64,000 bases of DNA from Bacteroidales bacterium UBA5219 (GTDB lineage Bacteria > Bacteroidota > Bacteroidia > Bacteroidales > ML635J-15): assembly GCA_002412425.1 (NCBI GenBank), contig DHVB01000062.1, positions 1,815-65,814 on the forward strand. Direction: 5' to 3'. The position numbers and the translations under genes are program-made. The notes under the pieces were generated by a model. That model saw only the letters and a program-made list of their open reading frames with translations. It was not told the origin of the DNA and searched no databases. Below are positions 1-26,860 of this stretch, one piece after another; positions within the stretch are counted from its first letter, which is position 1, and each line of letters begins with the position of its first letter.

Positions 1-1
1 T

Positions 2-970: not shown

Positions 971-979
971 AAGTAAATT

Positions 980-3121
980 ATGGCAAAGACCAAAAAGACA
1001 AAATCAGTAAAACAAGAAACACCAGCTCAAAGGCTATCAGGTATTATCAAAAGTTGTCGCCAAATCATGCGAAAAGACAAAGGCATGAACGGAGATGCGG
1101 ACAGACTACCAATGTTGACTTGGATAATGTTCTTAAAGTTCTTGGATGACAATGAGCAAATGCAAGAAGTAAATGCACAGCTTGAAGGTAAGAAATATAA
1201 ACCTGCAATAGAATCCCCTTATAGATGGCGCGATTGGGCAAAAGATACCAATCTAACAGGTGACGACCTGCTTAATTTCATCAGTAATGAGAAAGTTACT
1301 CTCTCTGACGGTAAAGAAAGAACAGGTTTATTTTACTATTTAAGGAGCTTACAAAGCGAAAGTGGAACGGAACGCAAAGACGTCATTGCAACGGCATTTA
1401 AAGGAATTAGCAACCGCATGATAAATGGGTACTTGCTAAGAGATGTAGTAAATAAAATTGACGGCATTCATTTCACAAATAACGAAGAAATAAATACGCT
1501 TTCGCACTTGTACGAAAGCATCTTGAAGGAAATGAGAGATGCAAGCGGTGATGCAGGTGAATTTTATACACCAAGACCAGTGGTGCGTTTCATGGTTGAA
1601 ATGCTAGCCCCTAAAATTGGTGAAACTGTTTTAGACCCCGCTTCAGGTACAGGTGGGTTCTTAGTTGAAGCCTTTGACTATTTGAAAAAACAGGCTAAAA
1701 CCGTAGAACAGAGACAAACATTACAAAGGAATTCCATTGTTGGAGGTGAACCAAAGTCATTACCCTTTCTGCTTTGTCAAATGAACTTGCTTTTGCATGG
1801 TCTTGAGTATCCAAATATTGATAGCGGTAACAGCCTTCGGTTTCCATTAAAAGACATTGGCGATTCTGAACGTGTAGATGTTATTCTTACCAATCCACCA
1901 TTCGGGGGTGAAGAAGAGAGAGGGATTCTAAACAATTTCCCGAATGATAAGCGAACAGCAGAAACTGCCTTGCTCTTTTTGCAATTGATAATGCGAAAGT
2001 TGAAAAGGAAAAAACCAAATTCAGATGGTGGTCGAGCCGCAGTAGTTGTTCCAAACTCAACTTTGGCAGGAAACGGCATCACAGGCAGAATTTTAAAACA
2101 GCTTATTTCTGATTTCAACCTACATACCGTTGTTCGTCTTGGAGAAGGCGTTTTCGCACCATACACTGACATTCCTTCAAATTTAATTTTCTTCGATACA
2201 ACTAAAAAAACTGATACTGTTTGGTTTTATGAAGTACCAATTCCAAAGGGGAAAAAGAAATACAGTAAATCAAAACCACTTAAATCAGATGAACTAGAAA
2301 AAGTTAAAAAATGGTGGAACAAAAGAGAAGAAAGTGAGAACTCATGGAGTGTCAAGGTTGCCGAATTAGTTCAATCCGAAGATGAAAAAATTGACTTAGA
2401 CCTTAGGAATCCGAATAAAGTAGACCCTTATGAAAATTTGGATGCTAATCTTCTAATCACAAAAGTTAGAGAAGCCATCACGCAAAATCTTGCCTTAATT
2501 ACTCAAATACAAAATGAAATTAGTAATTCTTTGACTGTTAAAACTGTTAGCTTATCTACAGCAATAGAAGAAAGCACTGATTCTGTAGAAGTGAATCCCA
2601 CCGTAATGTATAATTTTGCAGGTGTTTACGGATTTGGGAAAGGACTTTTTAAGCGAGAACCACTTTCAGGTAGCAATACTTCATACAAATCATTTCACAG
2701 GCTACACAAAGATGAAATTGTCATTAGTAAAGTAAAGGGATGGGAAGGCGCTATTGCATTGATTACAGAGGAATTTGATGGATTGTATCTATCTTCTCAA
2801 TATCCGACTTTTAAGGCTAAAGAAGGAGTCAACATTAAATACATAGCTGAGTATTGCAAACACCCTAGAGTTTGGCAGGAACTGCTAGATAAATCAAAAG
2901 GCATAGGTGCAAGAAGAAATTCAATTTCAGTTGACACTTTTTTATCGTTGAAAATCCCGTTACCAGAGTTGGAAGAGCAAGACAAAATTGTAGATGCACT
3001 TGAGAAACTTTCAGAATTGAAGAGAAAGCAATCAGAGCTGAACAAATCACTTGAATTGCTCACGCCAGCAATTTTGGAAACAGCTTTCAATTCTAAACCA
3101 GTTGAAGAAGTAGAAGTATGA
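980..3121 (+). CDS. hsdM: Type I N6-adenine DNA methyltransferase (HsdM) fused to one HsdS-type target recognition domain
   Basis: HsdM N-terminal region (LPMLTWIMFLKFLDD), AdoMet motif DPASGTGGFL and catalytic motif NPPFGG. Residues ~540-713 look like one HsdS TRD plus the conserved helix (LPLPELEEQDKIVDALEKL). There is no stand-alone hsdS in the window. Confidence 0.85.
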   Translation: MAKTKKTKSVKQETPAQRLSGIIKSCRQIMRKDKGMNGDADRLPMLTWIMFLKFLDDNEQMQEVNAQLEGKKYKPAIESPYRWRDWAKDTNLTGDDLLNFISNEKVTLSDGKERTGLFYYLRSLQSESGTERKDVIATAFKGISNRMINGYLLRDVVNKIDGIHFTNNEEINTLSHLYESILKEMRDASGDAGEFYTPRPVVRFMVEMLAPKIGETVLDPASGTGGFLVEAFDYLKKQAKTVEQRQTLQRNSIVGGEPKSLPFLLCQMNLLLHGLEYPNIDSGNSLRFPLKDIGDSERVDVILTNPPFGGEEERGILNNFPNDKRTAETALLFLQLIMRKLKRKKPNSDGGRAAVVVPNSTLAGNGITGRILKQLISDFNLHTVVRLGEGVFAPYTDIPSNLIFFDTTKKTDTVWFYEVPIPKGKKKYSKSKPLKSDELEKVKKWWNKREESENSWSVKVAELVQSEDEKIDLDLRNPNKVDPYENLDANLLITKVREAITQNLALITQIQNEISNSLTVKTVSLSTAIEESTDSVEVNPTVMYNFAGVYGFGKGLFKREPLSGSNTSYKSFHRLHKDEIVISKVKGWEGAIALITEEFDGLYLSSQYPTFKAKEGVNIKYIAEYCKHPRVWQELLDKSKGIGARRNSISVDTFLSLKIPLPELEEQDKIVDALEKLSELKRKQSELNKSLELLTPAILETAFNSKPVEEVEV

Positions 3122-3678
3122 AACCCAAACCATTAACAGCAATTCTATTATTCATAAGTGCTTACTCGCCTTTGTTTTTGATATTGGCAGTAAAGGATTT
3201 TGATTTCTATTGCAGTTACAGTTTTGGGCATCCAGTAGCCATTTCAATCCTTCTTGGCTTATCAGCATTGAGTGTAATACTGCTATTCGTAACTATAGGC
3301 TCAATTAAAAGAGGAAATATGCCTGTTACTGTGAAAGCAGTTAAAAACCGTTCGGTTGATTTAATTAACTACACAATCCCTTACATCGTTTCATTTTTTG
3401 GTTTTGACCTTGCGAAGGTTGAAGACATTATTTCGCTTTCAATATTCCTTTTGTTGCTTTTGCTTCTCACAATAAAAAGCAAGTCTGTATTCATGAACCC
3501 AATCCTACTTTTAGCAGGCTATAATCTTTACGATTTGGAATATGAATATGATGGCAAGCCAACTTCAACAATCGTAATTAGCAAGCATGAAATGAAAGCA
3601 GGAGAAAGATTTTACATAAGGAGCTTAACCCGCTTCTTGTACTTTGTAACAGAAAAAGAGACCACAAATGCCCAATAG
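3118..3678 (+). CDS. Small ~4-TM membrane protein, KwaA-like (candidate Kiwa component)
   Basis: ATGA start/stop overlap with hsdM. Four hydrophobic helices by eye (res ~6-25, 38-60, 82-96, 103-119) plus a soluble tail. The CDS call is strong; the Kiwa assignment rests only on architecture and gene pairing. Confidence 0.6.
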   Translation: MKPKPLTAILLFISAYSPLFLILAVKDFDFYCSYSFGHPVAISILLGLSALSVILLFVTIGSIKRGNMPVTVKAVKNRSVDLINYTIPYIVSFFGFDLAKVEDIISLSIFLLLLLLLTIKSKSVFMNPILLLAGYNLYDLEYEYDGKPTSTIVISKHEMKAGERFYIRSLTRFLYFVTEKETTNAQ

Positions 3679-4624
3679 ACAAAGACAAACGCTAAGACAA
3701 TTAAAAGACCTTGATTTAAGAGGGGCTAATGTGACATTGGCTGTTGTAAAAGAATACAAAAGAGACAGAGTTTCTCAGTACACGGTCAAATACGTTCCAA
3801 TTGACCAAAGACTTGAAACCAGACTAAGAAATATCGTTGTAAACCACATCAACAATTCAAACACAGTTGAAGAATACACCTATGATTGTCCTGAACCCGA
3901 AGAAGACCAGGTAAGGGCTATCAGTTATGAAGAAACTGACTTTTACAGAATATTTGAGCAGCTCGAAGATTTAAACCCAGAGGAAGATATTATTGAGGAT
4001 GTAGAAGAACTTGTAAAGTCCAAAGCCTACATGATAATTCTTCGGAATGCAGAAGGCATTCAAGTTGTCGGTTTCAAAACCCTGCCTGAGAATTGGAGAA
4101 TGAAACGAAACAAAGGTTTGATTCCCCTTTTGTACAACGAAAACCGATTTGAAGATTTAGAACAGGACAACGTTTTCAGTATTTCAAGCATTGTCGACCT
4201 TTTCTATTTTAATGAGTTTCTGTTCATTCTTTCCAAGAAAGATTTTGAAAGAGGCTTGAACTTCCGTGAAGGCATGATTAACAATGCGAACGAACTATAT
4301 CAGGAAGTTACTCAGTTGAACATTTTCGTGAATATGGAAATTCTGACTGACCGAGTTGGAAACAATCAGCGCTACTTAAGGAAAATTGCGACAATCAGAA
4401 ATTTAGGCCATTATAGAAATCCTGTTTACTTGCAGAGATTACAGCAACTAATTGTAACTAAAGGATGGAACATCCAATTTGAAGAAGAACAAATTGTAAT
4501 AACGGACGAGACACTTGACGATATTTTGACTTTGCTTCAAAACAAACGGCTTCATTCAGAATTAACCGAAGAAGATTTTGATGTGGAAAGTACAAAACCA
4601 GTAAACCCCAACGCAAACTTGTAA
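3668..4624 (+). CDS. 318-aa soluble protein, KwaB/DUF4868-like (candidate Kiwa component)
   Basis: 11-nt overlap with the upstream membrane-protein gene. Its size (~315 aa) and its pairing with a small multi-TM protein fit Kiwa. The central region VFSISSIVDLFYFNEFLFILSKKDFERGLNF resembles my recollection of DUF4868; this is not verified by a search. Confidence 0.55.
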   Translation: MPNRQRQTLRQLKDLDLRGANVTLAVVKEYKRDRVSQYTVKYVPIDQRLETRLRNIVVNHINNSNTVEEYTYDCPEPEEDQVRAISYEETDFYRIFEQLEDLNPEEDIIEDVEELVKSKAYMIILRNAEGIQVVGFKTLPENWRMKRNKGLIPLLYNENRFEDLEQDNVFSISSIVDLFYFNEFLFILSKKDFERGLNFREGMINNANELYQEVTQLNIFVNMEILTDRVGNNQRYLRKIATIRNLGHYRNPVYLQRLQQLIVTKGWNIQFEEEQIVITDETLDDILTLLQNKRLHSELTEEDFDVESTKPVNPNANL

Positions 4625-4779
4625 GCACATTTGCAGGTCACACAAAGCCACCGCTCGACCAAAACCTGTAAAAGAGCTTCCAAGTCCCTGCCCGATAAAA
4701 GAGAAATTTTAAGAATGCCCCAATACAAGGAAGATATGAGAATTACCATTGAAATATCGAGAGATGAAGAAGCACGATT

Positions 4780-4913
4780 GCCTAACAGCGTGTATGTGGC
4801 AATAGCGGGTGAAGAGGTAAATCGAAGGTCTATGCTTCTAAGAAACTTTGTGCAAAACGGACAGGAAAGTGCTTCTAATCCGCTACTGCACATACACGCA
4901 AAACGTTACCAGC
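4780..4913 (+). repeat. attC-like imperfect palindrome 0
   Basis: Left box GCCTAAC (4780-4786, fits RYYYAAC). The stem 4788-4808 pairs with 4880-4899 (20 bp, one bulged G4799, one A4802/C4886 mismatch). The loop is ~71 nt. Right box G4905|TTACCAGC. Confidence 0.65.
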
Positions 4914-4933
4914 AATTAGAGTGAAAACAAATT

Positions 4934-5851
4934 ATGAAAGAATATTTCAACTTACAAATAAAATTAATCGGTCGCAAATTTCGAGAAATAGGATTGCATC
5001 CGATTTTAGCTATAATTTTGTTAATGGTAGCTTTAATCGCGTTATCAATTTATGCTTATAAAAAAACGGAATTTGCTCCTTATATTCTTTCATTTCTTGC
5101 ATTATCTTTTATAATGAAATTGTCAGAAGTAAAACGAAATGAATTCCTTAAAACTATTTTTAAATCTAATGAACATATCAAAATCAGGATAATTGAAAAT
5201 TTAATTTTAACTATTCCATTTTTAATCATTCTATTGTTTTTTTATTCTTATTTTGAAGCATCTCTATTACTCTTGATTTCTATAATTTTCGCTATTAAAA
5301 GTATGAAGTCAGATTATAAATTTACGATACCTACACCCTATTTTAAAAAACCTTTTGAATTCACTATTGGATTTAGAAAAACTTTCTATTTAATTCCATT
5401 GGCATATATTCTTACAGTAATTTCAATTTCCGTAAACAATTTTAATTTAGGAATCTTTTCATTTTTACTCGTTTTCGTTGTTTATTTCTCCTATTATTTC
5501 AAACCAGAAGAGGAATATTTTGTTTGGTCATTCGATGCTAATCCAAAATCATTTTTGTTGTATAAAATTAAAACAGCATTAATGCAATCAACCTACTTCG
5601 TTTTGCCAATTGCTTTAACACTTTCCTATTTTTATCTTTCGGAAATCCTACTCGTTTTACTATTTCTAATTATTGGATACACTTTTCTTATATTTTTTAT
5701 CGTGGCTAAATATTCCACATATCCAGATGAAATAGGAATCGTTCAAGGAATCATTTTAGCACTTAGCATTTTCTTTCCTCCAATATTGTTAATGATTATT
5801 CCGTTATTATTTAACCAGTCTCAAAAACGTTTAAATTACTTGTTACAATGA
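4934..5851 (+). CDS. Polytopic membrane protein, probable permease partner of the downstream ABC ATPase
   Basis: 305 aa, very hydrophobic (about 8 helices by eye). ATGA overlap with the ATPase gene at 5848-5851. Confidence 0.7.
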   Translation: MKEYFNLQIKLIGRKFREIGLHPILAIILLMVALIALSIYAYKKTEFAPYILSFLALSFIMKLSEVKRNEFLKTIFKSNEHIKIRIIENLILTIPFLIILLFFYSYFEASLLLLISIIFAIKSMKSDYKFTIPTPYFKKPFEFTIGFRKTFYLIPLAYILTVISISVNNFNLGIFSFLLVFVVYFSYYFKPEEEYFVWSFDANPKSFLLYKIKTALMQSTYFVLPIALTLSYFYLSEILLVLLFLIIGYTFLIFFIVAKYSTYPDEIGIVQGIILALSIFFPPILLMIIPLLFNQSQKRLNYLLQ

Positions 5852-6528
5852 TTGAAATAAAAGATTTAACAAAAAAGTATGGCGATAAAATAGTTTTAAA
5901 AAATATTAACTTGCAATTTAACAAAGGCAAAGTGTATGGAATCGTTGGCGAAAATGGAGCAGGTAAAACGACATTATTTAGATGTATTTCGGGGTTAGAA
6001 AAATACGATGGAGAAATAAAATCGGAACTTAATCCGTTAAAAAATTATATTGGTTTATTGCTTACGAATCCGTATTTCTTTACAAGAATTACTGGACGAG
6101 AGTATTTGCAATTACTATGCAATGCAAGAAAGATTAAAATTGAAGATTTTGAAAAACAAAATATTTTTAATTTGCCATTAAATCAATATGCTTCTACCTA
6201 TTCGACAGGTATGAAAAAGAAATTGGCTATTACTGCCATTTTATTACAAAAAAATAAAGTTTTTATTCTTGATGAACCCTATAATGGCGTCGATATTCAA
6301 AGTAATTTAATAATTACTGAGCTCATTTTAGAATTGAAAAAGTTGAATAAAACTTTAATAATATCATCACATATTTTCTCTACATTGAATGATACTTGTG
6401 ATGAAATTCACTTATTAGAGAAAGGTGAATTAATTAAAACGGTGCAAAAGGAAGATTTTAAAAAATTAGAAGAAGAAATGAAAACAACAGCAATAGGAAA
6501 TAAGGTAAAAAAAATGAACTTAAAATAA
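5848..6528 (+). CDS. ABC transporter ATP-binding protein
   Basis: Walker A GENGAGKTT, signature-like YSTGMKKKL, Walker B VFILDEP. Confidence 0.9.
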   Translation: MIEIKDLTKKYGDKIVLKNINLQFNKGKVYGIVGENGAGKTTLFRCISGLEKYDGEIKSELNPLKNYIGLLLTNPYFFTRITGREYLQLLCNARKIKIEDFEKQNIFNLPLNQYASTYSTGMKKKLAITAILLQKNKVFILDEPYNGVDIQSNLIITELILELKKLNKTLIISSHIFSTLNDTCDEIHLLEKGELIKTVQKEDFKKLEEEMKTTAIGNKVKKMNLK

Positions 6529-6532
6529 AAAA

Positions 6533-6670
6533 GCTGGTAACAAGTCGTTTTACGTCAGGCGGGTTAATCACTTCGTTTCAAAGTTTTTCGTATATTTGAA
6601 CTTTGGTGCTTCGGTTCAAAATTTATGGTAAAGAACCCGCCCGAACGCAAAGCGCCGAAGCGTTCTCGGC
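6533..6670 (+). repeat. attC-like imperfect palindrome 1
   Basis: Left box GCTGGTAAC (6533-6541) begins 5 nt after the ABC stop. The inner clamp 6558-6565 pairs with 6634-6641, with an A6557/C6642 mismatch. The stem extends with a bulge to about 6544/6656. The loop is ~68 nt. Right box G6662|TTCTCGGC. Confidence 0.6.
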
Positions 6671-6695
6671 AATTTATAAACAAAAAACAAATACT

Positions 6696-8654
6696 ATGAA
6701 AAAAACACTGTTATTTGGATTAAGCATGTTAATATGCTTATTAAGTATTTCACAAGAATTACCTCAGTATGCACCTGGACAAATAATAGTTAAGGTCAAG
6801 GGCGATTTGTCTAAAACTTGTGAAAATATTGTCAACCAAGTCCCCACAAAATCAGGGAATGAATTGATTGTAAAAGATTCAATTCTTCAAAAATTCGGTA
6901 TATATAAAATAGAATCCTTGCATTATTTTGATGAGTCTAAAAAAACTTTGTTGAAAAGTGGATCGGAAAAAACATTTGTTTTCTATACCAATGAGACAGA
7001 TTTACCTCAACTAATTGAAAATATTAAAAAAACACCTGATGTAGAAGATGCTTATTTTAACTTTTTATTTATTTCTCATGTTGAACCTGATGATGACAAA
7101 TATGATGATCAATGGTCATTGCCCAAAATAAGTATGCCAGAAGCATGGGATATTCAGAAAGGATGTACAGATTTAAAAATTGCCATACTTGACGTGGGTT
7201 TTAGAGATTTGGAACATAATGATGTAGATGATAAATTTCTGTCAACAAGAAGAGATGAAACAGATATTGATGTCAGTTCATATACAAATAATGGATATTC
7301 AACTGTATCAGGAGAGGATTATACAACACCTGATGATAATCCAGAGGGAGAAAGTTTTCATGGCTTACAGGTTTCAGGTGTTGCTGCTGCAGAAACTAAC
7401 AATAATAAAGGTATAGCCGGAGTTGGATGGGATATTTATATTGTACCTGTCAGATGTGGTTTTACGATTAAGTATTTCGGACAGGAATATGGTCTATTTG
7501 AAATGGATGATATAATACGTGCAATTGATTGGGTAGTTGCAGGTAACAGAGCAAGAGTTATTAATATGAGTTTGGGAGGAATTGCTCCAACAGGAAATGC
7601 CCTTATTGAATATGAAAATTCATTGGAAGCTGCTTATAATAGCGGAATTGTTATTGTTGCATCAAGTGGTAACGACAACAATAATCAAGCTTCTTACCCT
7701 GCTTCATCTCAATTTACAATAGCCGTTGGCGCATCAAATGAGAATGATAATCGTGCAAGTTTTTCAAATTATGGACAAGATTTAGATATTATTGCTCCCG
7801 GAATAAATATTCTTACAGTAAATAGAAAACTAGTTAATCAATATAAAGAAGTTGATGGTACTTCATTCTCTGCTCCTATTGTATCAGGAATTACTGCACT
7901 TATTTTATCTCAAAATCCTGAATTAAATCCCGAACAAGTTAGAGATATATTAAATGAGAGTGCAGACGAGGTAAGTGGCATGAGTGGTCAAAACTTTCAT
8001 GTTGAATATGGTTTTGGTAGAGTAAATGCTAAAAAAGCATTAGAATTTGTGCCAGAAATAAAATATGATATTACTCTAAATAATGAAGTGATTACAGATT
8101 TACAAATTGTTCATGCACAAAACTCCATTACTGCTTCAAATTATTCAGTTGAACCAGGAGCAACGGTAATATTTAAAGCAGGAAATTCCATACATTTAAC
8201 AAATGGATTCCATGCTAAAGCAGGTTCAAATTTTCACGCCTATATTGATGACGTAGGCGTTTCCTGTTCTTCTAAATCATTAAAATCGGGGGAAACGGCA
8301 GGTAATGATACTATTACAAATGACGGAATAATTAAGGAAGAAGAAAATTTGAACAGTAACACTATACCGACCAACGTCATTACATCAGAATCCATGAATA
8401 TAATAGTATTTCCTAATCCTTTTTCAGACAAGGCAACAATACAATTTGAAATAGGAACGAATCCTCAAATAGTTAACATTTATATTAATGACTTGATTGG
8501 CAGAACAATAAAAACAATAGTCAAATCAAACAACAATCCCAATGGAAAATATTCAGTTGATTTTAATTTATCAGGATTTAAACAAGGGATATACTTTGTT
8601 ATTTTAGAAATTGATAAACAGAAATATACTCGTAAAATAATATACAAACACTAA
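6696..8654 (+). CDS. Secreted subtilisin-family (S8) serine peptidase with T9SS C-terminal sorting domain
   Basis: The start is placed at M32 of the 6603 ORF, where a signal peptide begins (MKKTLLFGLSMLICLLSISQ). Catalytic motifs are AILDVGF (D), HGLQVSGVAAA (H) and GTSFSAPIVSG (S). The C-terminus (VFPNPFSDKATIQFE...GIYFVILEI) is typical of a Por/T9SS sorting domain. Confidence 0.9.
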   Translation: MKKTLLFGLSMLICLLSISQELPQYAPGQIIVKVKGDLSKTCENIVNQVPTKSGNELIVKDSILQKFGIYKIESLHYFDESKKTLLKSGSEKTFVFYTNETDLPQLIENIKKTPDVEDAYFNFLFISHVEPDDDKYDDQWSLPKISMPEAWDIQKGCTDLKIAILDVGFRDLEHNDVDDKFLSTRRDETDIDVSSYTNNGYSTVSGEDYTTPDDNPEGESFHGLQVSGVAAAETNNNKGIAGVGWDIYIVPVRCGFTIKYFGQEYGLFEMDDIIRAIDWVVAGNRARVINMSLGGIAPTGNALIEYENSLEAAYNSGIVIVASSGNDNNNQASYPASSQFTIAVGASNENDNRASFSNYGQDLDIIAPGINILTVNRKLVNQYKEVDGTSFSAPIVSGITALILSQNPELNPEQVRDILNESADEVSGMSGQNFHVEYGFGRVNAKKALEFVPEIKYDITLNNEVITDLQIVHAQNSITASNYSVEPGATVIFKAGNSIHLTNGFHAKAGSNFHAYIDDVGVSCSSKSLKSGETAGNDTITNDGIIKEEENLNSNTIPTNVITSESMNIIVFPNPFSDKATIQFEIGTNPQIVNIYINDLIGRTIKTIVKSNNNPNGKYSVDFNLSGFKQGIYFVILEIDKQKYTRKIIYKH

Positions 8655-8666
8655 ATTGACCATTAT

Positions 8667-9257
8667 ATGAAAAAAACCGCATTTACATATTTTATTTTGT
8701 TTCTTATTTCTCTAAATGTCCTTGCTCAAAAAGTAGATAAAAATAATTTCAGTTTAGGTCTTTTTATTGGCGAGGGAACAGGAGTCTTAACAGATTTTAG
8801 TATTAATGATAAATTTGGAATTGAGTGGAATATATCCTATAATGAAATGTTTTATAAATACAGATATACAAACAAATATTCAGATTTTATAAATCAAAAA
8901 TATAACAATATATATAGCTCATCTCTTTTATTAAATTACAGAAACAAATTTATGAATAATAACAAATTAGATTATCATTTTGCTATCGGCAGCCAAATGA
9001 GGATTATTACTGATTTTTATCAGGGAATACCTGTTTTGACACCTCCAAATACTATAATTATTGTTGACCCAACAACAAAAAATAAAATAGATATAGGTAT
9101 TAGTTTATTGATGGGTACTGAATATTGTTTGACTGAAAACATTTCCGTATTCTTTGACTTAGGGACATATATTGAAATAACAGATATTTTTTTATGGTCA
9201 AATTTTCAATTTAGAACAGGATTAATGTATCGTATAAATTATAAAAAGAAAGAATAA
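8667..9257 (+). CDS. Putative outer-membrane beta-barrel protein
   Basis: Signal peptide MKKTAFTYFILFLISLNVLAQ. Alternating aromatic/polar pattern, 196 aa. No recognisable enzyme motifs. Confidence 0.6.
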   Translation: MKKTAFTYFILFLISLNVLAQKVDKNNFSLGLFIGEGTGVLTDFSINDKFGIEWNISYNEMFYKYRYTNKYSDFINQKYNNIYSSSLLLNYRNKFMNNNKLDYHFAIGSQMRIITDFYQGIPVLTPPNTIIIVDPTTKNKIDIGISLLMGTEYCLTENISVFFDLGTYIEITDIFLWSNFQFRTGLMYRINYKKKE

Positions 9258-9260
9258 ACA

Positions 9261-9397
9261 GCCGAGAACAGCAGCTACACGCAAGTGGGGGTTCAGTGCT
9301 TCTATGAAAGTGAAGTGCCAAATCAAAGTTCTGTACTTTTAATGGAGTTCAGTGCTAAAAATCCCCACCTGCGTGTAGCTGCCAACCGTTAGCCAAC
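9261..9397 (+). repeat. attC-like imperfect palindrome 2
   Basis: Left box GCCGAGAAC (9261-9269) begins 4 nt after the stop at 9257. The stem 9271-9290 pairs with 9363-9382 (19/20, with an A9284/C9369 mismatch). The loop is ~72 nt. Right box G9388|TTAGCCAAC. Confidence 0.65.
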
Positions 9398-9642
9398 ATA
9401 TTACAATACGCACCCTTAGTAAAAAAATCGATTTATCCAAATTTTTCATCAAAAATATTTTGTGGTTTGATTTATTATTATTATCATTGCATTATCATTT
9501 CATATCTTATGAAAATTAGGTGTAGTAATATTGTTGTTTTTACTGCTTTTCAACCCAATCCTCTAAAAATAAGCAAATCCACACTAATTTTTTTTGATGA
9601 TTTTAATTCAGCTTTTATTTATTCTCTTAAAAATTAAATATT

Positions 9643-9747
9643 ATGAAAAGAAAACTTTACATGCTAGTATTATTTATGTTTGCTTTCTATTTAGGAGATG
9701 CACAAAGTAATATTATTACTACTACAACAATAGTAAAGTGTTTTTAA
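9643..9747 (+). CDS. Orphan signal-peptide ORF (N-terminus of the downstream S8 peptidase, out of frame)
   Basis: An ATG at 9643 encodes MKRKLYMLVLFMFAFYLGDAQSNIITTTTIVKCF*. The stop lies immediately after a T5 run (9741-9745). One extra T would fuse it to the 9738..12632 frame. Confidence 0.6.
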   Translation: MKRKLYMLVLFMFAFYLGDAQSNIITTTTIVKCF

Positions 9748-12632
9748 ATCTTGACAATTCTAGTGTAACATTAATAACAGAAAATGATTTTCAGAAAAGT
9801 TCTGTTAGTACATTAAATTTTAAAGAATTCAATTTAGAACAAGAAAGTCCAAGTGCTAATTATAAATATTCTAATATTGAATTTCAACAAATACCATCTT
9901 CTGTAGAATATTTTCAAAAAATAAATTTATTAAATTCTAACGCTAAAATAATAAAAGCAAATCCAAATTTCACTAACTCCTTTGGTAAAAAATTTGGATT
10001 ATCAAATTATTTTTATGTAAAATTAAAAAACGCTTCTGATTATCAATTATTGGTTTCAAAAGTATTAGAGAGAAATGTAATTATTGTAGAACAAAATCAA
10101 TTTATGCCGTTATGGTATACATTGAAAATTACTAAAAATACTATTGGAAATACTTTAGAAGTTGCAAATCAATTTTTTGAAACTGGACTATTTGCTTCTA
10201 GTCAGCCTGATTTCCTTTCAGATGATAGATTTTGTAGTAATGACCCAATGTTTGGAAGTTTGTGGGGATTAAATAACACCTCAAACACAAATCATGATAT
10301 AAATATTTGTCAAGCTTGGAATATAACACAGGGAGCCAATGTCAATGTAGCAGTATTAGATCAAGGCATTTTTAAAACACATATTGATTTATATTCAAAT
10401 ATTCATCCATTAAGTTATAACACTGAAACAAACACAAGTCCAAGTCAATTATTTGGTGACCATGGAACGCATTGTGCAGGAACAATAGCAGCAATAAAAG
10501 ATAATAATATTCAGGTTGTTGGAGTATCGCCGTTATCAAAACTTATGGATATTAGTAATTCATTAGCAGGAACTCCAAATAGTAGAATGAAAAGAGCTGA
10601 TGGTATTAATTGGGCTTGGCAAAATGGGGCTGATATTATTAGCAATTCATGGGGGTCTGGCGTGCAATATCAAGTTATTGATGATGCAATAAATAATGCT
10701 CTACAAAATGGAAGAAATGGTAAAGGTACTATAATTGTTTTTGCAACTGGAAACAACAATAATTCAGTCAGCTACCCAGCTAATTCAAATCCAAGTATTC
10801 TTTCTGTTGGTGCAATGACATCTAGTGGTACCAGGTCTAGTTTTTCTAATTATGGAACACAGCTTGATGTTGTTGCTCCTGGAAGTAACATTCTATCAAC
10901 AGTACCAAATAATCAAACTGCAAGTTGGGATGGTACATCAATGGCAACTCCACACGTAGCAGGAGTGGCTGCTTTAATACTTTCCGTAAATCCTTACTTA
11001 TCAGCACAGCAAGTAAGTGATATAATAGAGCAAACTGCTCAAAAAGTTGGAGGTTATGATTACCAAAACCAGCCTAATAGACCAAATGGTACGTGGCACG
11101 AACAAATGGGCTATGGTTTAGTTGATGCCTATGCTGCAGTGAAATTGGCGCAAAATATGTATTCTACAACTTTAGATTTATACATAAAGGACAAACCTGA
11201 TGATATGGGAATTGAACCTAATCCGAACACACAGCTTATGTGGACAAGTAAAGACATATGGATAAGGAATAACGATGACGGTGGATTAACACATCAAAAT
11301 CCTGAATATAGAAGCAATGGAAGTCCAAACTATATTTATGTAAGGATAATTAATAAGAGTAGTGTGCCATCAACAGGTAATGAAATATTAAATCTTAATT
11401 GGGCTAAAGCAAGTACTGCTCTTATTTGGCCTCAAAATTGGGATGGTAGTTTACAAAATTCCGCTGGTTATAACTTAGGTGGCGCCTTTCCTATTTCAAC
11501 AATACCCGTTTTGCAACCTGGCAACGAAACAATAGTTAAAATACCTTGGGTAGTTCCAAATCCCAGTAACTATTCAGACAATAACGAGCCATGGCACTTT
11601 TGTTTATTGGCAAGAATAGATGGTATAGGAGACCCTTTACAGCCAGTATTATCGTCAATAAATGAAATGGCAATAAACGATAATAATGTTGCTTGGACAA
11701 ATATCACAATTGTAGATTTAGAAACAGAAATAACAGGAGCAAGTGTTTTGGTTGCCAACCCATCACAGATACAAAGAACTTTCTTTTTGGAATTACACAA
11801 AGAGGTAAATGAAAGCGGAAAGGCTATTTTTAATGAAGCCGAAGTAAGCCTAAAAATGGATGATGTTTTATATAGTGCATGGGAAAGAGGTGGAAAAATT
11901 GCACAAAAATTAGCTCCAACACAAGAAGAAAAACGAAAATTGGTTAAAGGTGATAATGTTATATTAGACAATATTGCCTTTAATTCAAATGAAATGGGCT
12001 TACTAACTTTAGACTTTAATTTTTTGATAAAAGAGTTAACAGATAAAGACGAATATACCTACCACGTAGTGCAAAAAGATGCTAACACAGGCGAAGTATT
12101 AGGTGGTGAAACTTTTATTATCAGAAAAAGTTCAAGACAGACTTTTGTAGCCGATGCAGGCGATGATAAAGAAGTTGCAAAAAATGAAACCATTACTATA
12201 AGTGCAAAAGATATAAATGAACCTGCGGTTTACAATTGGTATGACAGTAAAGGTGATTTAATTTATCAAGGAAAAGATTTAACCGTTACGGCAGATGTGG
12301 TAGAGAAATATAAACTTGAAGTCATTGCAACTACCGATGGTTTTAAAGATTATGCAAGCATAGGAGTTAAATTTAAACCCAATATCATTGAAAGTATATC
12401 GCCAAATCCTGCTTTAGATAATATTGTAGTAAATTACAAGATAAACGAAGCAAGCTCTGCGTATTTAATGGTCTTAGGATATTACGGAAGTGGCACATCG
12501 TACAATTATATCTTAGATGTCAATTTACAAGAAATACAAATTAACACAAGCAGCTATCAAAATGGATTTTATACTGTTGCTTTAGTTTGTGATGGAGAAA
12601 TTGCAGATGCCAAAACATTATTAAAACAATAA
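9738..12632 (+). CDS. Subtilisin-family (S8) serine peptidase with T9SS C-terminal sorting domain; apparent frameshift removes its signal peptide
   Basis: Catalytic motifs VAVLDQGI (D), HGTHCAGTIAA (H) and GTSMATPHVAGVAAL (S). The C-terminal ISPNPALDNIVVNYK...GFYTVALVCDG is T9SS CTD-like. As listed, the ORF starts at a GTG with no signal peptide. Confidence 0.85.
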   Translation: MFLNLDNSSVTLITENDFQKSSVSTLNFKEFNLEQESPSANYKYSNIEFQQIPSSVEYFQKINLLNSNAKIIKANPNFTNSFGKKFGLSNYFYVKLKNASDYQLLVSKVLERNVIIVEQNQFMPLWYTLKITKNTIGNTLEVANQFFETGLFASSQPDFLSDDRFCSNDPMFGSLWGLNNTSNTNHDINICQAWNITQGANVNVAVLDQGIFKTHIDLYSNIHPLSYNTETNTSPSQLFGDHGTHCAGTIAAIKDNNIQVVGVSPLSKLMDISNSLAGTPNSRMKRADGINWAWQNGADIISNSWGSGVQYQVIDDAINNALQNGRNGKGTIIVFATGNNNNSVSYPANSNPSILSVGAMTSSGTRSSFSNYGTQLDVVAPGSNILSTVPNNQTASWDGTSMATPHVAGVAALILSVNPYLSAQQVSDIIEQTAQKVGGYDYQNQPNRPNGTWHEQMGYGLVDAYAAVKLAQNMYSTTLDLYIKDKPDDMGIEPNPNTQLMWTSKDIWIRNNDDGGLTHQNPEYRSNGSPNYIYVRIINKSSVPSTGNEILNLNWAKASTALIWPQNWDGSLQNSAGYNLGGAFPISTIPVLQPGNETIVKIPWVVPNPSNYSDNNEPWHFCLLARIDGIGDPLQPVLSSINEMAINDNNVAWTNITIVDLETEITGASVLVANPSQIQRTFFLELHKEVNESGKAIFNEAEVSLKMDDVLYSAWERGGKIAQKLAPTQEEKRKLVKGDNVILDNIAFNSNEMGLLTLDFNFLIKELTDKDEYTYHVVQKDANTGEVLGGETFIIRKSSRQTFVADAGDDKEVAKNETITISAKDINEPAVYNWYDSKGDLIYQGKDLTVTADVVEKYKLEVIATTDGFKDYASIGVKFKPNIIESISPNPALDNIVVNYKINEASSAYLMVLGYYGSGTSYNYILDVNLQEIQINTSSYQNGFYTVALVCDGEIADAKTLLKQ

Positions 12633-12661
12633 CATTTCATAACATTTTAAATACAAATATC

Positions 12662-13138
12662 ATGAAGTCAAAAATAATTATAATTTTAATCCTTGGTTCG
12701 TTTCTTTTAATAAACTTTGGTTGCGAAAAAAACGCAGGTGACGATTCTACTCATAGTACATATCCGATAGATATTAGTTTTACTGAAATTGGAAAAGGAG
12801 CATTGTATGGTAATGGAGCAGAGAATATTCCACAACAGAATATTGTTATTACAAATCAAACACAATTCAATGATTTAATTAATTCTATGAATACTGTAAA
12901 TAATGTTTCAAACTCATTCACTGAAACAAGTATTGATTTTAATACATATCAAATTATTGCCGTTTTTAAGGAAGTAAAACCAACAAGTTGGAAAGTTGAA
13001 ATAACCAGTGTTATTGAAAATGCAGAAAACATTACTATTTTAATAATTGAAACTGAAAATGAAAGTACAGTGATAACCCAACCCTTTCACATAGTTAAAA
13101 TTCCAAAGACAACAAAACCAATAGTATTTGAACAATAG
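12662..13138 (+). CDS. Small lipoprotein, PrcB-like (protease-complex partner family)
   Basis: Lipobox LLINFGC. The C-terminal part (YQIIAVFKEVKPTSWKVEITSV...VITQPFHIVKIPK) matches my recollection of the PrcB_C domain found next to subtilisin-type proteases. It sits directly downstream of an S8 peptidase. Confidence 0.55.
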   Translation: MKSKIIIILILGSFLLINFGCEKNAGDDSTHSTYPIDISFTEIGKGALYGNGAENIPQQNIVITNQTQFNDLINSMNTVNNVSNSFTETSIDFNTYQIIAVFKEVKPTSWKVEITSVIENAENITILIIETENESTVITQPFHIVKIPKTTKPIVFEQ

Positions 13139-13144
13139 ATATAC

Positions 13145-13280
13145 GTTGGATAACAATGTATAAACACAATAGCGGGCAAATTGCAAATTTTAATATCCGA
13201 ACTTTGCTTTAATATCTTGCAAGATTTGAATGTTGGTGTTTCAAAGTCCGCTACTGTGTTTATACTAAATCGTTATGGAG
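13145..13280 (+). repeat. attC-like imperfect palindrome 3 (last in array)
   Basis: Left box GTTGGATAAC (13145-13154) begins 7 nt after the stop at 13138. The stem 13158-13175 pairs with 13248-13265 (17/18, with an A13169/C13254 mismatch). The loop is ~70 nt. Right box G13272|TTATGGAG. Confidence 0.65.
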
Positions 13281-13719: not shown

Positions 13720-14391
13720 ATGAAAAAAACTTACTTCTTTATATTGCTTTTATGTGTAACTAAACTAAGTCTTTCGCAATCAGACAGTTTGGTTAAGTGC
13801 GATTTTAGTTTTGAATTTAAACCTGGTTTGTATTTGCAGTTTTCAGATTTTAGAAGCAATTCGCCAATTCCTTTTGAATCAGTTGTTTACCCAGATTATT
13901 CTCATAAAGATTTTTATTATAATTTAGATACTGCAAAAACCATAATCTTTAACGATAAACACGGTTTGCTTATCAAAAAACAAATATCTGAAGTTTGGGG
14001 ATTTTCTAAAAATGGAAAACCATATATTTATTGGTCTAACAAAGCAAATTTAATTCCTTTTGTAGGTTCTATTTCTCATTTTATTACAACAATTAATACA
14101 ATTCGCCATATAAGTCCAGAACCTTATTATGGTTCTTATTACTACAATCCTTACTATTATTCGCCACCAATGTCGAGAACCTATCAAACCGAAGAATTAA
14201 AACAATTTATAATTGATATGGAAACTGGAAATATTCTTGAATATAGTGTGAAAAATGTAGAATCAATATTAAAACGAGAGCCACAAATTTATGATGAATT
14301 TTCAAAATTAAGGAAAAGAAAAAAGACTAAACAACTGTTTTATTACGTTAGACTTTATAACGAAAAACGAGTTTTAATGATGAATGAGTAA
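13720..14391 (+). CDS. Hypothetical secreted protein
   Basis: Signal peptide MKKTYFFILLLCVTKLSLSQ. 223 aa, no recognisable motifs. Confidence 0.7.
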   Translation: MKKTYFFILLLCVTKLSLSQSDSLVKCDFSFEFKPGLYLQFSDFRSNSPIPFESVVYPDYSHKDFYYNLDTAKTIIFNDKHGLLIKKQISEVWGFSKNGKPYIYWSNKANLIPFVGSISHFITTINTIRHISPEPYYGSYYYNPYYYSPPMSRTYQTEELKQFIIDMETGNILEYSVKNVESILKREPQIYDEFSKLRKRKKTKQLFYYVRLYNEKRVLMMNE

Positions 14392-14411
14392 ATTTTTAAA
14401 AACCATGTATA

Positions 14412-15269
14412 ATGTTAAGATTAGTAATTTTTATTTTTTTAATTAACTCCTATTTAATAGGTTTTGCACAAATTAATATTTCTCGCGGAAGTCAAGCAGA
14501 AATCAATACTTTTTTAAACTCAAAAACTTATATTGTACTAAACAACACATTAATGTCTGACTACAATATGGAAATGAAAGAAGCCATCTTAAAACATTGG
14601 ACAATAACAGATTACGAGTTTATTACTGAATCAGAGTTTAAAAAACACAAATCAAATCCTAAAAATTCTTTTTTGATGATAAACCAAGTTTATTTTGAAA
14701 AAGACAAAACACAAACATTGTTTGATTTTTTAATTTTATGTTTAGGTGGAAATTACAAAACCGTAAACGACATGCCAACTCTTTGTGCCATACCGCTTTG
14801 CTATCATGGTGCTTTGCAAGAAGCATATGCTTATAAATTAGGATTAATGGTAAAATTCACTCAATTACATATAAAAACTTGCAAAAATAATCCAACTATA
14901 AGCGAGGATAAATTAGCAGAATATTATATGAATAAAACAGGTAGTCCTAAAACCAAAACTTTTTATTTATTAAAAGAAGAAGTTGAACCTGAAATTAGAA
15001 CAAAAAATTCTTTTGCTACAGCATATCCATTTAATTTTGAATATGCAGACAAAGAAAAAATTAAAAACTTAATTGACAACAATGATGAAGATGCAATAAT
15101 CCTACATATTTTAGGACCACAAACAAGCAACACACTTTCTTACTGTATAAAAATAATTATTGACACTCAGGAAGGCAATATTTATTATTACGACATGCAC
15201 AAACTGAGCAATAAAAATGCAGACAGATTATTAAAAAGCGATTTAAAGAAATTAGCAAGTAAAAAATGA
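14412..15269 (+). CDS. Hypothetical secreted protein
   Basis: N-terminal signal-like segment MLRLVIFIFLINSYLIGFAQ. 285 aa. The stop overlaps the folC start. Confidence 0.7.
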   Translation: MLRLVIFIFLINSYLIGFAQINISRGSQAEINTFLNSKTYIVLNNTLMSDYNMEMKEAILKHWTITDYEFITESEFKKHKSNPKNSFLMINQVYFEKDKTQTLFDFLILCLGGNYKTVNDMPTLCAIPLCYHGALQEAYAYKLGLMVKFTQLHIKTCKNNPTISEDKLAEYYMNKTGSPKTKTFYLLKEEVEPEIRTKNSFATAYPFNFEYADKEKIKNLIDNNDEDAIILHILGPQTSNTLSYCIKIIIDTQEGNIYYYDMHKLSNKNADRLLKSDLKKLASKK

Positions 15270-16564
15270 ATTACCAAGAAGTAATTGAATTTATGTTCAA
15301 CTCTTTACCTATGTATCAAAGAGTTGGGGCAGCCGCTTATAAAGCAAATTTAGACAATACTCTAGCATTTGATAAAATTACTGGCTCGCCACATAAAAAA
15401 TACAAAACCATTCATATTGCAGGTACTAATGGCAAAGGTTCTGTTTCGCATAGTTTAGCATCAATTTTACAAGAAGCGGGCTACAAAACTGGTCTTTACA
15501 CCTCGCCTCATCTTACCGATTATCGCGAAAGAATTAGAGTAAATGGAAAAAAAATAGAGGAAAGTTTTATTACAGAGTTTATAAATAGCCATAAAAATTT
15601 TATCAAAAATGTAAAACCTTCTTTCTTTGAAATGTCGGTAGCCTTAGCTTTTAAATATTTTGAGTTACAACAAGTTGAGGTCGCTGTTATTGAAGTTGGA
15701 ATGGGCGGAAGATTGGATTCCACAAATATTATTTTGCCAGAATTATCAGTAATTACAAATATTGGATTAGACCACACACAATTTTTAGGTAATAGTTTGG
15801 CTGAAATTGCCGGCGAAAAAGCTGGAATAATAAAGCAAAATATTCCTGTAGTAATTGGAGAAAGACAGAAAGAAACAGAAGAAGTTTTCTTAAAAAAAGC
15901 CAAAGAAAAGAACAGTAAAATAAGTTTTGCATCAGATAATTATGCTTGTAAAATTTTAAACTCAAATCTTAAATATTCAAATTTTGAGGTGGAGAAAAAA
16001 ACAAGTGATAAATCTTACACTTTAAATTTTAACTTATCGGGAAAATATCAAGAAAAAAACTTAGCTACAATACTTGAAACTGTTGATAATTTGAGAAATC
16101 AAGGATTTTGTATTTCTGATGAAAATTTGAAACAAGGTTTAGAAAATCTTATAAAAAACACTGGTTTTCATGGCAGATGGGAAACTTTAAATGCCGAACC
16201 ACTAACAATCTGTGACACAGGACATAACAAAGATGGATTAAGCTATACTATCGAACAATTATTAAGTCTTGAGTTTAAAAAACTAAGATTTGTGCTTGGT
16301 TTTGTTAATGATAAAAATGTTGATGAAGTATTAAAGCTATTTCCAAAAAATGCTGAGTATTATTTTTGTAAAGCACAAATTCCACGAGCTTTAGATGAAA
16401 AAATACTGTTAGAAAAAGCAAATTTAGTTAGTATAAACGGCAAATCTTTTGAAAATGTAAGTTCGGCTTATCATGCTGCTAAAAAAGATGCTGATAAAAA
16501 CGATGTGATTTTTATTGGAGGAAGCACTTTTGTTGTGGCTGATTTGTTGCAAGAATTTGCATAA
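15266..16564 (+). CDS. folC: Bifunctional folylpolyglutamate synthase / dihydrofolate synthase
   Basis: Mur-ligase P-loop HIAGTNGKGSV, and TSPHL and VIEVGMGGRLDSTN motifs typical of FolC. Confidence 0.9.
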   Translation: MNYQEVIEFMFNSLPMYQRVGAAAYKANLDNTLAFDKITGSPHKKYKTIHIAGTNGKGSVSHSLASILQEAGYKTGLYTSPHLTDYRERIRVNGKKIEESFITEFINSHKNFIKNVKPSFFEMSVALAFKYFELQQVEVAVIEVGMGGRLDSTNIILPELSVITNIGLDHTQFLGNSLAEIAGEKAGIIKQNIPVVIGERQKETEEVFLKKAKEKNSKISFASDNYACKILNSNLKYSNFEVEKKTSDKSYTLNFNLSGKYQEKNLATILETVDNLRNQGFCISDENLKQGLENLIKNTGFHGRWETLNAEPLTICDTGHNKDGLSYTIEQLLSLEFKKLRFVLGFVNDKNVDEVLKLFPKNAEYYFCKAQIPRALDEKILLEKANLVSINGKSFENVSSAYHAAKKDADKNDVIFIGGSTFVVADLLQEFA

Positions 16565-26503: not shown

Positions 26504-26644
26504 AAAACATTGTTTACAAAATGAAAAAAATATTAAGTATTTTTTAATGCTATTGTATAAAAATACCTAACGAATACTTATTTTCAGCGTTTCAGCCCCA
26601 TACCGAACAATTACGCCCTGCCCATAAGTGCACCCCAGTTAAAA

Positions 26645-26722
26645 GTTAAAAGCGGTTTTCTGTTTGGCATTTCTTTACAAACTTTTTACTTTATAAATTT
26701 TTAACTGAGTTTATTGTGTTGC
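26645..26722 (+). repeat. Dispersed intergenic repeat, copy 2
   Basis: Aligns with 13434-13512 (GTTAAAAG...CTTTTTACTTTATAAA...TTTATTGTrTTGC). The similarity resumes at 26862-26873 after a ~139-nt insertion. Confidence 0.7.
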
Positions 26723-26860
26723 CCTACGGGCAAGGCTTTCGAGGGTTTAAATACCGCAGGCTACGCCTACGGTTAATCACATGTTGTCCTACGGACAAAC
26801 CCTTGATAGTCTTATATTGTCCTTCGGACAATTAAATGAGTTAGCGTGTGGTTCAAAAAA
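26719..26860 (+). other. Hairpin-rich GC-elevated block (candidate structured RNA or REP/MITE-like insertion)
   Basis: Hairpins: TTGCCC-TAC-GGGCAA (26719-26733), CCGCAGGC-TAC-GCCTACGG (26754-26772, one mismatch), TTGTCC-TAC-GGACAA (26784-26798) and TTGTCC-TTC-GGACAA (26817-26831). A long-range pair AGGGTTT (26743-26749) / AAACCCT (26798-26804) encloses the two middle hairpins. Confidence 0.5.

Follow-up and report, generated by a model that had tools for sequence, protein, structure and literature searches.

The DNA analysed here is a stretch of 64,000 nucleotides (nt; hereafter the window) from an uncultured Bacteroidales bacterium of anaerobic digesters. It is chromosomal DNA of ~30% G+C, carrying the atp operon, ribosomal protein genes, genes of the size of rpoB and rpoC, tRNAs and dnaG. 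Our subject is the left end of the window (1-13280), where four long imperfect palindromes resembling the attC sites of integrons alternate with groups of genes on the same strand, together with a tyrosine recombinase gene that lies just outside the window to the left. Other contigs and loci retrieved for comparison are denoted by L numbers.

Results

Gene groups and palindromes

The four palindromes, each 136-138 nt long, lie on the + strand at 4778-4913 (site 0), 6533-6670 (site 1), 9261-9397 (site 2) and 13145-13280 (site 3). The initial annotation, made from the letters alone, had divided this DNA into three cassettes (4906-6662, 6663-9388 and 9389-13272); this division was borne out by the analyses described below, which extend it by a fourth cassette (cassette 0) closed by site 0. 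The 3' part of cassette 0 occupies 1-4905 (+), its last base being the G of site 0, and the whole cassette comes to ~6,644 bp. It encodes the C-terminal part of HsdR, the R subunit of a type I restriction enzyme (44-970, +; Pfam EcoEI_R_C, 4.3e-28), which has its full length of 802 amino acids (aa) in the overlapping contig L001; a 713-aa HsdM-HsdS fusion, i.e. the methylase/specificity component of type I restriction-modification (R-M) (980-3121, +; Pfam N6_Mtase 2.3e-61, Methylase_S and HsdM_N); and the Kiwa defence system proteins KwaA (kwaA, 3118-3678, +; 186 aa; Pfam PF28043 KwaA on the identical L001 gene) and KwaB (kwaB, 3668-4624, +; 318 aa; Pfam KwaB 1.1e-32).

Cassette 1 (4906-6662, +; 1,757 bp with a leader of 28 nt) encodes a 305-aa protein of no known family (4934-5851) and a 226-aa ATP-binding cassette (ABC)-type ATPase (5848-6528; Pfam ABC_tran 1.6e-23). 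Cassette 2 (6663-9388, +; 2,726 bp) contains the gene for an S8 peptidase (probable start ATG 6697, end 8654; Pfam Peptidase_S8 8.1e-49) with the C-terminal sorting domain of the type IX secretion system (T9SS; Por_Secre_tail 1.3e-11), followed by that for a 196-aa no-family protein (8667-9257). Cassette 3 (9389-13272, +; 3,884 bp) contains a second S8 peptidase gene (end 12632; Pfam Peptidase_S8 1e-57), whose product would be 964 aa long from GTG 9738 or 996 aa from the alternative start at 9643 suggested by L098, and a gene for a 158-aa no-family protein (12662-13138). Cassettes 2 and 3 thus each couple an S8 subtilase (6697-8654 and 9643-12632) with a small no-family protein, and the T9SS sorting domain is found in the first only. 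Of the gene labels proposed initially, S8 peptidase and ABC ATPase are supported by Pfam, and outer membrane barrel ('OM barrel'), 'PrcB-like lipoprotein' and 'membrane protein' are without such support.

Structure and detection of the sites

Each palindrome can be described by an outer left box (R''), an inner stem (L) and an outer right box (R') that begins with the crossover triplet GTT. In site 0 these are R'' TTGCCTAAC (4778-4786), an L stem of 4788-4808 with 4880-4899, and R' GTTACCAGC (4905-4913), with the predicted crossover in GTT 4905-4907. Site 1 has R'' GCTGGTAAC (6533-6541), R' GTTCTCGGC (6662-6670) and GTT 6662-6664, and site 2 has R'' GCCGAGAAC (9261-9269), a 91% complementary L stem (9271-9293 with 9360-9382), R' GTTAGCCAAC (9388-9397) and GTT 9388-9390. 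The last site of the array, site 3, has R'' GTTGGATAAC (13145-13154), a 94% complementary L stem (13158-13175 with 13248-13265), R' GTTATGGAG and GTT 13272-13274. The AAC..GTT spacing is 120-123 nt in all four window sites, as it is in 104/135 sites of the family to which they belong (see below), and the site consensus reads (N6)TAAC-A-[about 20-nt arm]...[arm]-(A/G)GAAC-GTTA(N6).

An ungapped arm scan recovered sites 2 and 3 only, because sites 0 and 1 are both bulged, and a hairpin scan based on duplex energy was used instead; over the 64 kb the four window sites were its strongest AAC...GTT outliers. A covariance model (R1), built from 80 sequences that include the four window sites, had these four as its sole hits in the 64 kb, all on the + strand with scores of 65-106 bits (90.1, 79.6, 105.8 and 65.2 bits for sites 0 to 3) and the next best hit at 21 bits. 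A further strong AAC...GTT hairpin between the atp operon and rplM (26608-26747, -; duplex energy -17.1 kcal/mol, 139-nt spacing) was rejected as an additional site, R1 not recognising it. Searching Rfam at the four sites gave no family hit. Open reading frames (ORFs) of 60-110 codons cross the attC-like sites (window 4631-4924, +, and 4552-4893, -; L001 8534-8722), and several public contigs list them as genes. The palindromes probably give rise to them artefactually.

It is the structure of the sites rather than their sequence that is conserved. The mean column identity is 58% among the four window sites and only 51% in the 80-site alignment, in which AAC and GTT are nevertheless invariant in 80/80 sequences. 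In the L stem of this alignment 91% of cells are paired and compensatory changes occur in 18/18 pairs, giving a covariation score of 0.562 vs 0.172 in shuffled alignments (reached by 0/500) and at most 0.107 with slid partners. Mismatches are conserved as well, A opposite C at alignment columns 38/141 and T.G at columns 28/152, and two conserved top-strand mismatches (C.A and A.C) turn into G.T pairs on the bottom strand. The bottom strand is the more stable one in 105/134 sites (p = 3e-14), and in three of the four in the window.

Complementarity between neighbouring boxes

The initial annotation had reported that the right end of each palindrome is the reverse complement of the left end of the next, and the six boxes stand where it had placed them (GTTACCAGC/GCTGGTAAC, GTTCTCGGC/GCCGAGAAC and GTTAGCCAAC/GTTGGATAAC). 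We scored the boxes with the invariant GTT/AAC set aside, i.e. by comparing the 6 bases after GTT with the reverse complement of the 6 bases before AAC. Adjacent pairs (R' of site n with R'' of site n+1) matched at 6/6, 6/6 and 5/6 positions, and over ten bases the complementarity reached 8/10 in all three pairs, beyond the extent first described. The other combinations in the 4x4 matrix of boxes gave 0-3/6, with the exception of site 2 R' against site 0 R'' (5/6). For random AAC/GTT pairs from the window the probability of 6/6 is 6.8e-4 and that of at least 5/6 is 9.7e-3; the joint chance of the three specified matches is ~4e-9, in agreement with the earlier judgement that they are very unlikely to be fortuitous. 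The companion statement, that the two boxes within a site match only through the core, was a slight overstatement, as within-site flanks agree at 1-3/6 in the window and show a weak bias to pairing among 155 related sites (6/6 in 10/155).

Partners for site 0 R'' and site 3 R' were sought inside the window and none was found, and a window scan found no site with a complementary R'' downstream of site 3. Site 3 R' lacks a partner because the array ends there, and site 0 R'' because its partner sits in L001, to the left of the window. The rule that emerges from the adjacent pairs, in the window and in the 80 loci described below, is that the first bases of each cassette are complementary to the R'' of its own attC-like site.

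The recombinase gene and the attI-like site

L001, which was retrieved by exact-protein look-up, is identical to window 1-13121 (0 mismatches over 13,121 bp) and reaches 3,798 bp further left. At 838-1875, ~1.9 kb left of the window, it carries a gene for a 345-aa tyrosine recombinase that points to the array, and 184 bp past the stop codon of this gene the sequence reads ...TATAAACAAG|TTAGGCAAC (in longer context ...GGTATAAACAAG|TTAGGCAAC). The box at this position (L001 2058-2067, GTTAGGCAAC) contains TTAGGCAA, which is complementary at 9/9 positions to site 0 R'' TTGCCTAAC. Cassette 0 therefore starts at TTAGGCAAC, 1,739 bp left of the window start, and site 0 closes a fourth cassette of ~6.64 kb that holds a complete type I R-M system and Kiwa.

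An attI-like site thus adjoins the recombinase gene, although its role in insertion is putative. Defined as a GTT with the complement of the R'' of the first attC-like site, it was found in 34 loci, at a median of 102 bp past the recombinase stop, with the conserved motif TTTGT...TATAtACAA|GTTA (consensus TATAWACAA|GTTA). In two related loci the attI-like site is directly followed by a cassette of ~180 bp without an ORF (L109 11146-11325; L113 11093-11268), consisting of little beyond a site of a different sequence type; in the short cassette of L113 the GTT of this site reads ATT. A gene for a NusG/UpxY-like antiterminator lies directly upstream of the recombinase gene in L001 (291-812), in the window strain only. 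It was rejected as part of the platform, being absent from 80/80 other loci (tblastn, E<=1e-5).

The catalytic residues of the recombinase (R202, K227, H292, R295, H318 and Y327) are invariant across 16 family members. The L001 protein matches Pfam Phage_integrase and SAM_4, and its best curated family is NCBIfam XerA_Arch (NF040815; 'site-specific tyrosine recombinase/integron integrase'), with 223.9 bits against a cut-off of 220; XerD and XerC gave 203 and 190 bits. It scored 195 bits against the integron integrase model TIGR02249, in two stretches and below the cut-off of 265, and 112 against PRK15417, for which the cut-off is 435; the window's true XerC-like gene product reached 98 bits on TIGR02249. 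The IntI-specific insertion, a segment of ~35-55 residues in the catalytic domain, touches extrahelical bases of the folded attC in the integron integrase VchIntIA. When the recombinase was aligned with VchIntIA (IntI4, 2a3v), residues 255-268 stood opposite IntI4 188-243, so that this insertion is absent, as it is in 16/16 aligned homologues.

In an AlphaFold model (mean predicted local distance difference test score 79.7), residues 1-55 form a conserved beta-beta-alpha-beta-beta-alpha domain ahead of a XerA-like body, and this extra N-terminal beta/alpha domain of ~60 residues is conserved in the family. The best structural matches were XerA 5hxy (1.1e-43, 33% identity) and then IntI4 2a3v; a fold search with the whole model returned a XerA/IntI-like body and no assignment for the N-terminal domain. 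Sequence and predicted fold place the recombinase among the 'simple' Xer/IntI-like enzymes, and none of the catalytic residues is missing. The only tyrosine recombinase gene inside the window is an XerC/D-like housekeeping gene at 60078-60965; it lies 47 kb off the array and was rejected as a flanking integrase for its distance and its XerC/D-like character. The candidate for the cognate recombinase is encoded by the gene just outside the window and is not a canonical integron integrase.

Natural breakpoints in other contigs

Presence/absence polymorphism in other metagenomic contigs was used to locate the ends of the mobile units. The crossovers predicted initially at 4905/4906, 6662/6663 and 9388/9389 coincide with natural breakpoints at GTT. 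At the fourth position, 13272/13273, no polymorphism was seen; all 8 contigs share one right flank, which is what the end of an array should look like. Cassette 0 occurs with six left flanks and three right flanks, this locus included, and identity breaks at GTT on both sides; elsewhere it is preceded by five other sequences, four of which are attC-like sites of other cassettes (it follows such a site in L004-L006) and one a second ...TATAAACAAG context, and on its right two other cassettes occur. Cassette 1 has three left and two right neighbours across contigs. Cassette 2 is precisely absent from L096, L097 and L100, where the end of site 1, ...gaagcG (...GCGCCGAAGCG), is joined to the start of cassette 3, TTAGCCAAC (TTAGCCAACATATT), and it stands between other partners in L104, L105, L107 and L108, with four left and four right flanks. 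Cassette 3 has two left neighbours. These breakpoints confine the crossover to the GTT triplet, its edges included; the exact bond originally proposed, between G and TT, follows from the analogy with integrons only, because GTT is invariant in both partners and the crossover cannot be fixed to one bond.

The neighbouring cassettes in these related arrays (L004 170-3486; L087-L092; L104-L105) mostly contain defence genes, e.g. an RnlA-like toxin gene with an RNase HII-like gene and a tetratricopeptide repeat gene, a set of helix-turn-helix, N6_N4 methylase and ResIII helicase genes, AlwI-like and HinP1I-like restriction genes with a methylase gene, and a gene for a 532-aa double ABC ATPase. At some GTT junctions the partner of the cassette does not resemble attC (L088 1230-1290; L104 1590-1633 and L105 630-671). 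One of these ends, ...GCTATAAACAAG, is attI-like and lies in a contig without a recombinase gene, and the other reads ...GCGTAAATTAGATG; such junctions are possibly secondary or orphan insertion sites. Many of the assemblies L007-L086 end 100-1,500 bp past the recombinase gene, and in the window species 2/3 long contigs begin at attI, in keeping with repetitive arrays or with heterogeneity of arrays within populations. Since assemblies break at arrays, arrays are under-represented in draft genomes.

The same architecture in other Bacteroidota

The recombinase belongs to a large and conserved family, with homologues of 59-72% identity encoded in Flavobacteriales, Sphingobacteriales, Cytophagales, Chitinophagales and Ignavibacteria/Chlorobi. 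We examined 80 other genome loci up to 10 kb either side of the recombinase gene; their homologues show 59-71% identity, and the genomes include those of Flavobacterium, Pedobacter, Chitinophaga, Kaistella, Saprospiraceae and Ignavibacteria. In the hairpin scan, 298 kb of sequence downstream of the recombinase yielded 130 sites, and 707 kb of upstream sequence yielded 4. R1, at E<=1e-3, gave 168 sites, 93 of them outside its training set; all were on the recombinase strand and 167/168 were downstream. The box rule was obeyed at 6/6 positions by 90/107 adjacent pairs, as compared with 10/155 within sites and 18/663 non-adjacent pairs. Cassettes in the 80 loci measure 371-4631 bp, with a median of 762 bp.

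Two further kinds of hairpin were seen in the related loci. A longer class of site (~200 nt) with lower model scores often follows opposite-strand genes (Erm-like, Cat-like), e.g. at L087 10997-11201 and its equivalents, L113 15293-15494 and L116 6708-6911. In L012 (3597-4112) three tandem hairpins with AAC..GTT spacings of 127-128 nt stand ~194 bp apart, 6 kb upstream of the recombinase gene, and are not detected by R1.

Mobile relatives and resistance cassettes

One homologue (P0018), identical across several Flavobacteriales species, is encoded on a conjugative or mobilisable element with ParA, MobC and relaxase genes upstream and, in L111, a gene for a TraG-like coupling protein downstream. 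Its arrays (L110-L117; e.g. L113 11035-16500, L116 1750-8240 and L111 11035-19330) hold resistance genes, namely Tet(X)-like, Erm-like, OXA-like, Sul-like, Cat-like, ANT, APH, DHFR and metallo-beta-lactamase genes, mostly ending in a site detected by R1; the tet(X) cassette, for instance, runs from TTATGTGCC to GGCACATAAC-stem-G. On its gene content the P0018 element is an analogue of the resistance 'mobile integron'.

The platform of recombinase and array is also present on two Chryseobacterium plasmids. On one of these (L109, from Chryseobacterium sp. SNU WT5) genes for an insertion sequence (IS)110-family transposase and a group II intron reverse transcriptase lie inside the array on the opposite strand (14296-15632 and 16762-18701), each just ahead of an attC-like site, and recall the IS1111-attC elements and group IIC-attC introns of classical integrons. 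A shortened and more distant homologue (53% identity, residues 125-344) is found on the Acinetobacter baumannii plasmid p29FS20-1 (L118 4516-6537), where the recombinase remnant is followed by ...GTTATGTGCC and tet(X5) with the same 5' cassette boundary as in Paenimyroides (L113). R1 found no 3' site on p29FS20-1, so that only the 5' boundary of the cassette survives, and estT and ISVsa3 follow. The same shortened homologue is present in ~49 Acinetobacter plasmid records.

Discussion

We regard it as highly probable that positions 1-13280 of the window represent the distal stretch of an integron-like array of gene cassettes in the chromosome, served by an adjacent family of Xer-type recombinases. 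The anatomy of the sites, the box rule, the breakpoints at GTT and the conserved order of recombinase, attI-like site and array are all directly observed. The mechanism that we propose for them is as follows. A cassette would be a unit running from TT(N6-10) to a ~137-nt imperfect palindrome whose last base is G, and as its left arm, (N6)TAAC, is the complement of the bases that open the same cassette, circularisation would create one full site. In the circular form the N6 flanks would pair to give an R box of 10-14 bp, followed by an asymmetric internal loop of 1 x 5-6 nt and then the L stem; circular cassette 2, for example, would carry the junction ...GCTGCCAACCG|TTCTCGGCAATT. Insertion, excision and reshuffling would take place by site-specific recombination inside the invariant GTT/AAC triplet. 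The most probable catalyst is the 345-aa tyrosine recombinase whose gene lies left of the window, and it would act with the attI-like site past its stop codon. By analogy with integrons it would probably use the attC-like site in the form of a folded bottom strand, because structure is conserved over sequence, G.T pairs form on the bottom strand and the bottom strand is the more stable one.

Several observations weigh against this interpretation. The recombinase lacks the ~40-residue insertion that reads the folded attC in VchIntIA, and a double-strand mechanism is a conceivable alternative to recombination of folded sites. In contrast to canonical attC sites, R and L are separated by an asymmetric spacer (1 nt vs 5-6 nt on the opposite side). 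The link between the recombinase and the sites consists of conserved adjacency and orientation rather than of an experiment. The sequences used for the box rule were mostly picked by AAC...GTT hairpin criteria that presuppose the site model, although R1 also recovered 93 sites outside its training set. The window cassettes, at 1.8-6.6 kb with 2-4 genes, are far above the family median of 762 bp. Finally, no promoter was identified for the array, no scan having been run since the sigma-70 hexamer model does not apply to Bacteroidota.

A first alternative is that the array is an ordinary integron remnant, i.e. a group of attC sites on which a canonical IntI with the specific insertion, encoded elsewhere in the genome or on a mobile element, acts in trans, and that the neighbouring Xer-like gene is unrelated to it. 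The canonical R''-L''...L'-R' layout and the invariant AAC/GTT triplet would be expected in this case, some Bacteroidota, Chlorobi and Ignavibacteria are reported to possess integron integrases (PMC9024848, PMC8618304), and our search for recombinases in this genome covered the window and L001. We consider this improbable, however, because recombinases of the same family lie directly upstream of, and co-oriented with, such arrays in 80 genomes of many genera, with 167/168 sites downstream of them and a conserved crossover site a median of 102 bp past the stop codon, and because recombinase and array travel together on a conjugative element and on plasmids. Surveys with IntegronFinder also give almost no integrons in Bacteroidetes (PMC9024848).

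Slightly less probable again is that cassettes are moved by host dimer resolvases of the XerC/XerD type, as in the pdif modules of Acinetobacter or in integrative mobile elements exploiting Xer (IMEX), the palindromes being Xer-binding arms. The adjacent recombinase is indeed Xer-like (XerA 224 bits, XerD 203 bits), and a genuine XerC/D-like protein is encoded in the window at 60078-60965. Yet this housekeeping gene is unlinked to the array, 47 kb off, whereas a dedicated and conserved recombinase paralogue with an extra N-terminal domain stands beside every array. The mobile units are bounded by structured palindromes of 136-138 nt, in which pairing is conserved and sequence variable, rather than by 28-bp dif-like duplexes with a 6-8-bp centre, although no explicit search for dif-like motifs was made. 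The idea that the palindromes are non-mobile terminators or repeats of the repetitive extragenic palindromic (REP) type, with ends swapped by chance or replication slippage, is effectively refuted: although they close groups of co-oriented genes on the 3' side, a position in which one would look for terminators, the chance of the three matches is ~4e-9, the box rule recurs in 90/107 adjacent pairs elsewhere, identical copies of a cassette stand beside a wide variety of neighbours and break off precisely at GTT, the sites are restricted to arrays that follow genes of a single recombinase family, and, in place of the many near-identical dispersed copies of REP or bacterial interspersed mosaic elements (BIME), the 64 kb hold four sites in one array with 58% mean column identity.

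The system of array and adjacent recombinase shares with integrons a platform of tyrosine recombinase and attI; co-oriented and mostly short-leadered cassettes that end in R''-L''...L'-R' palindromes; an invariant AAC/GTT crossover triplet with a cassette start complementary to the R'' of its own site; conservation of structure over sequence, with the bottom strand folding better; a cargo rich in defence genes, with resistance genes in the mobile relatives; and, in one plasmid array, an IS110-family element and a group II intron beside the sites. It differs from them in its recombinase, which lacks the IntI-specific insertion, scores below the TIGR02249 cut-off (195 vs 265 bits) and has an extra N-terminal domain. 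The recombinase gene is always co-oriented with the cassettes, with attI past its 3' end, whereas in integrons attI lies upstream of a divergent integrase gene. Co-directionality as such is also known from the 'inverted-integrase' integrons of the group comprising Treponema denticola, Chlorobi, Planctomycetes and Cyanobacteria, the integrases of which are known to carry the IntI insertion that the present family lacks. Differences are also seen in the near-fixed length of the sites, their 10-14-nt R box and asymmetric spacer (1 vs 5-6 nt), and in the multi-gene cassettes of up to 6.6 kb, the defence cassettes of classical integrons being reported as streamlined (bioRxiv 10.1101/2024.07.02.601686). 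The system is integron-like in every testable respect and fails one defining feature, the IntI insertion.

Its relation to Xer systems is of a different kind. XerA is the closest solved structure of the recombinase and its best curated family, and both are 'simple' enzymes without a lambda-type arm-binding domain. Xer modules (pdif) differ from the present system, which has long structured palindromes, an array-linked recombinase with an extra N-terminal domain and an XerC/D-like gene coexisting with it.

Two sets of published observations may be connected with this family. A gene labelled 'XerD' has been described beside tet(X), catB and aadS, with no mechanism offered (PMC7473080, PMC11194056), and homologues of the present recombinase head arrays in which resistance genes are bounded by sites of the family. 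In Riemerella anatipestifer, a PCR fragment with a gene and flanks of 27 bp at its 5' end and 140 bp at its 3' end integrates site-specifically and independently of homology; an attC-like fold of the 3' flank was noted, no recombinase was named and the mechanism was called not yet elucidated (PMC13148043). These two flanks match the anatomy of the cassettes described here.

IntegronFinder 2.0 reported essentially no integrons in Bacteroidetes, with the exception of one in Salinibacter (PMC9024848), which suggests that sites of the present kind were missed or logged only as isolated clusters. We found no description of the system in the full-text literature, a search outside which most subscription journals lie, so that an earlier description is possible. 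Our wider proposal, towards which the evidence in our view inclines modestly, is that Bacteroidota and their Ignavibacteria/Chlorobi relatives possess a widespread integron family of their own, overlooked since its integrase lacks the IntI-specific domain, and that sedentary arrays of this family stockpile multi-gene defence systems while mobile ones, carried by conjugative elements and plasmids, bring together cassettes for aminoglycoside resistance and those with tet(X), erm(F)-like, OXA-like, sul-like and cat-like genes.

Integrons have been held to be near-absent from Bacteroidetes and dependent on the IntI insertion; here the full behavioural signature is associated with an insertion-free recombinase in many genera. 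If the proposal is true, recombination of cassettes as folded hairpins either needs no IntI insertion or arose twice, and both the 'XerD-tet(X)' association and the homology-independent capture of genes in Riemerella would be accounted for. As both the sites and the recombinase are compact and well defined, strand-specific recombination assays and a dedicated detection model would be straightforward. Relatives of the platform carry clinically important resistance genes on conjugative elements, including tet(X) variants (tigecycline resistance), and the system provides a concrete and testable mechanism for findings that several papers leave unexplained. With its complete type I R-M system and Kiwa stored as a single cassette of 6.6 kb, the array in the window extends the idea of the integron as a defence 'biobank' to another phylum and to far larger cassettes.

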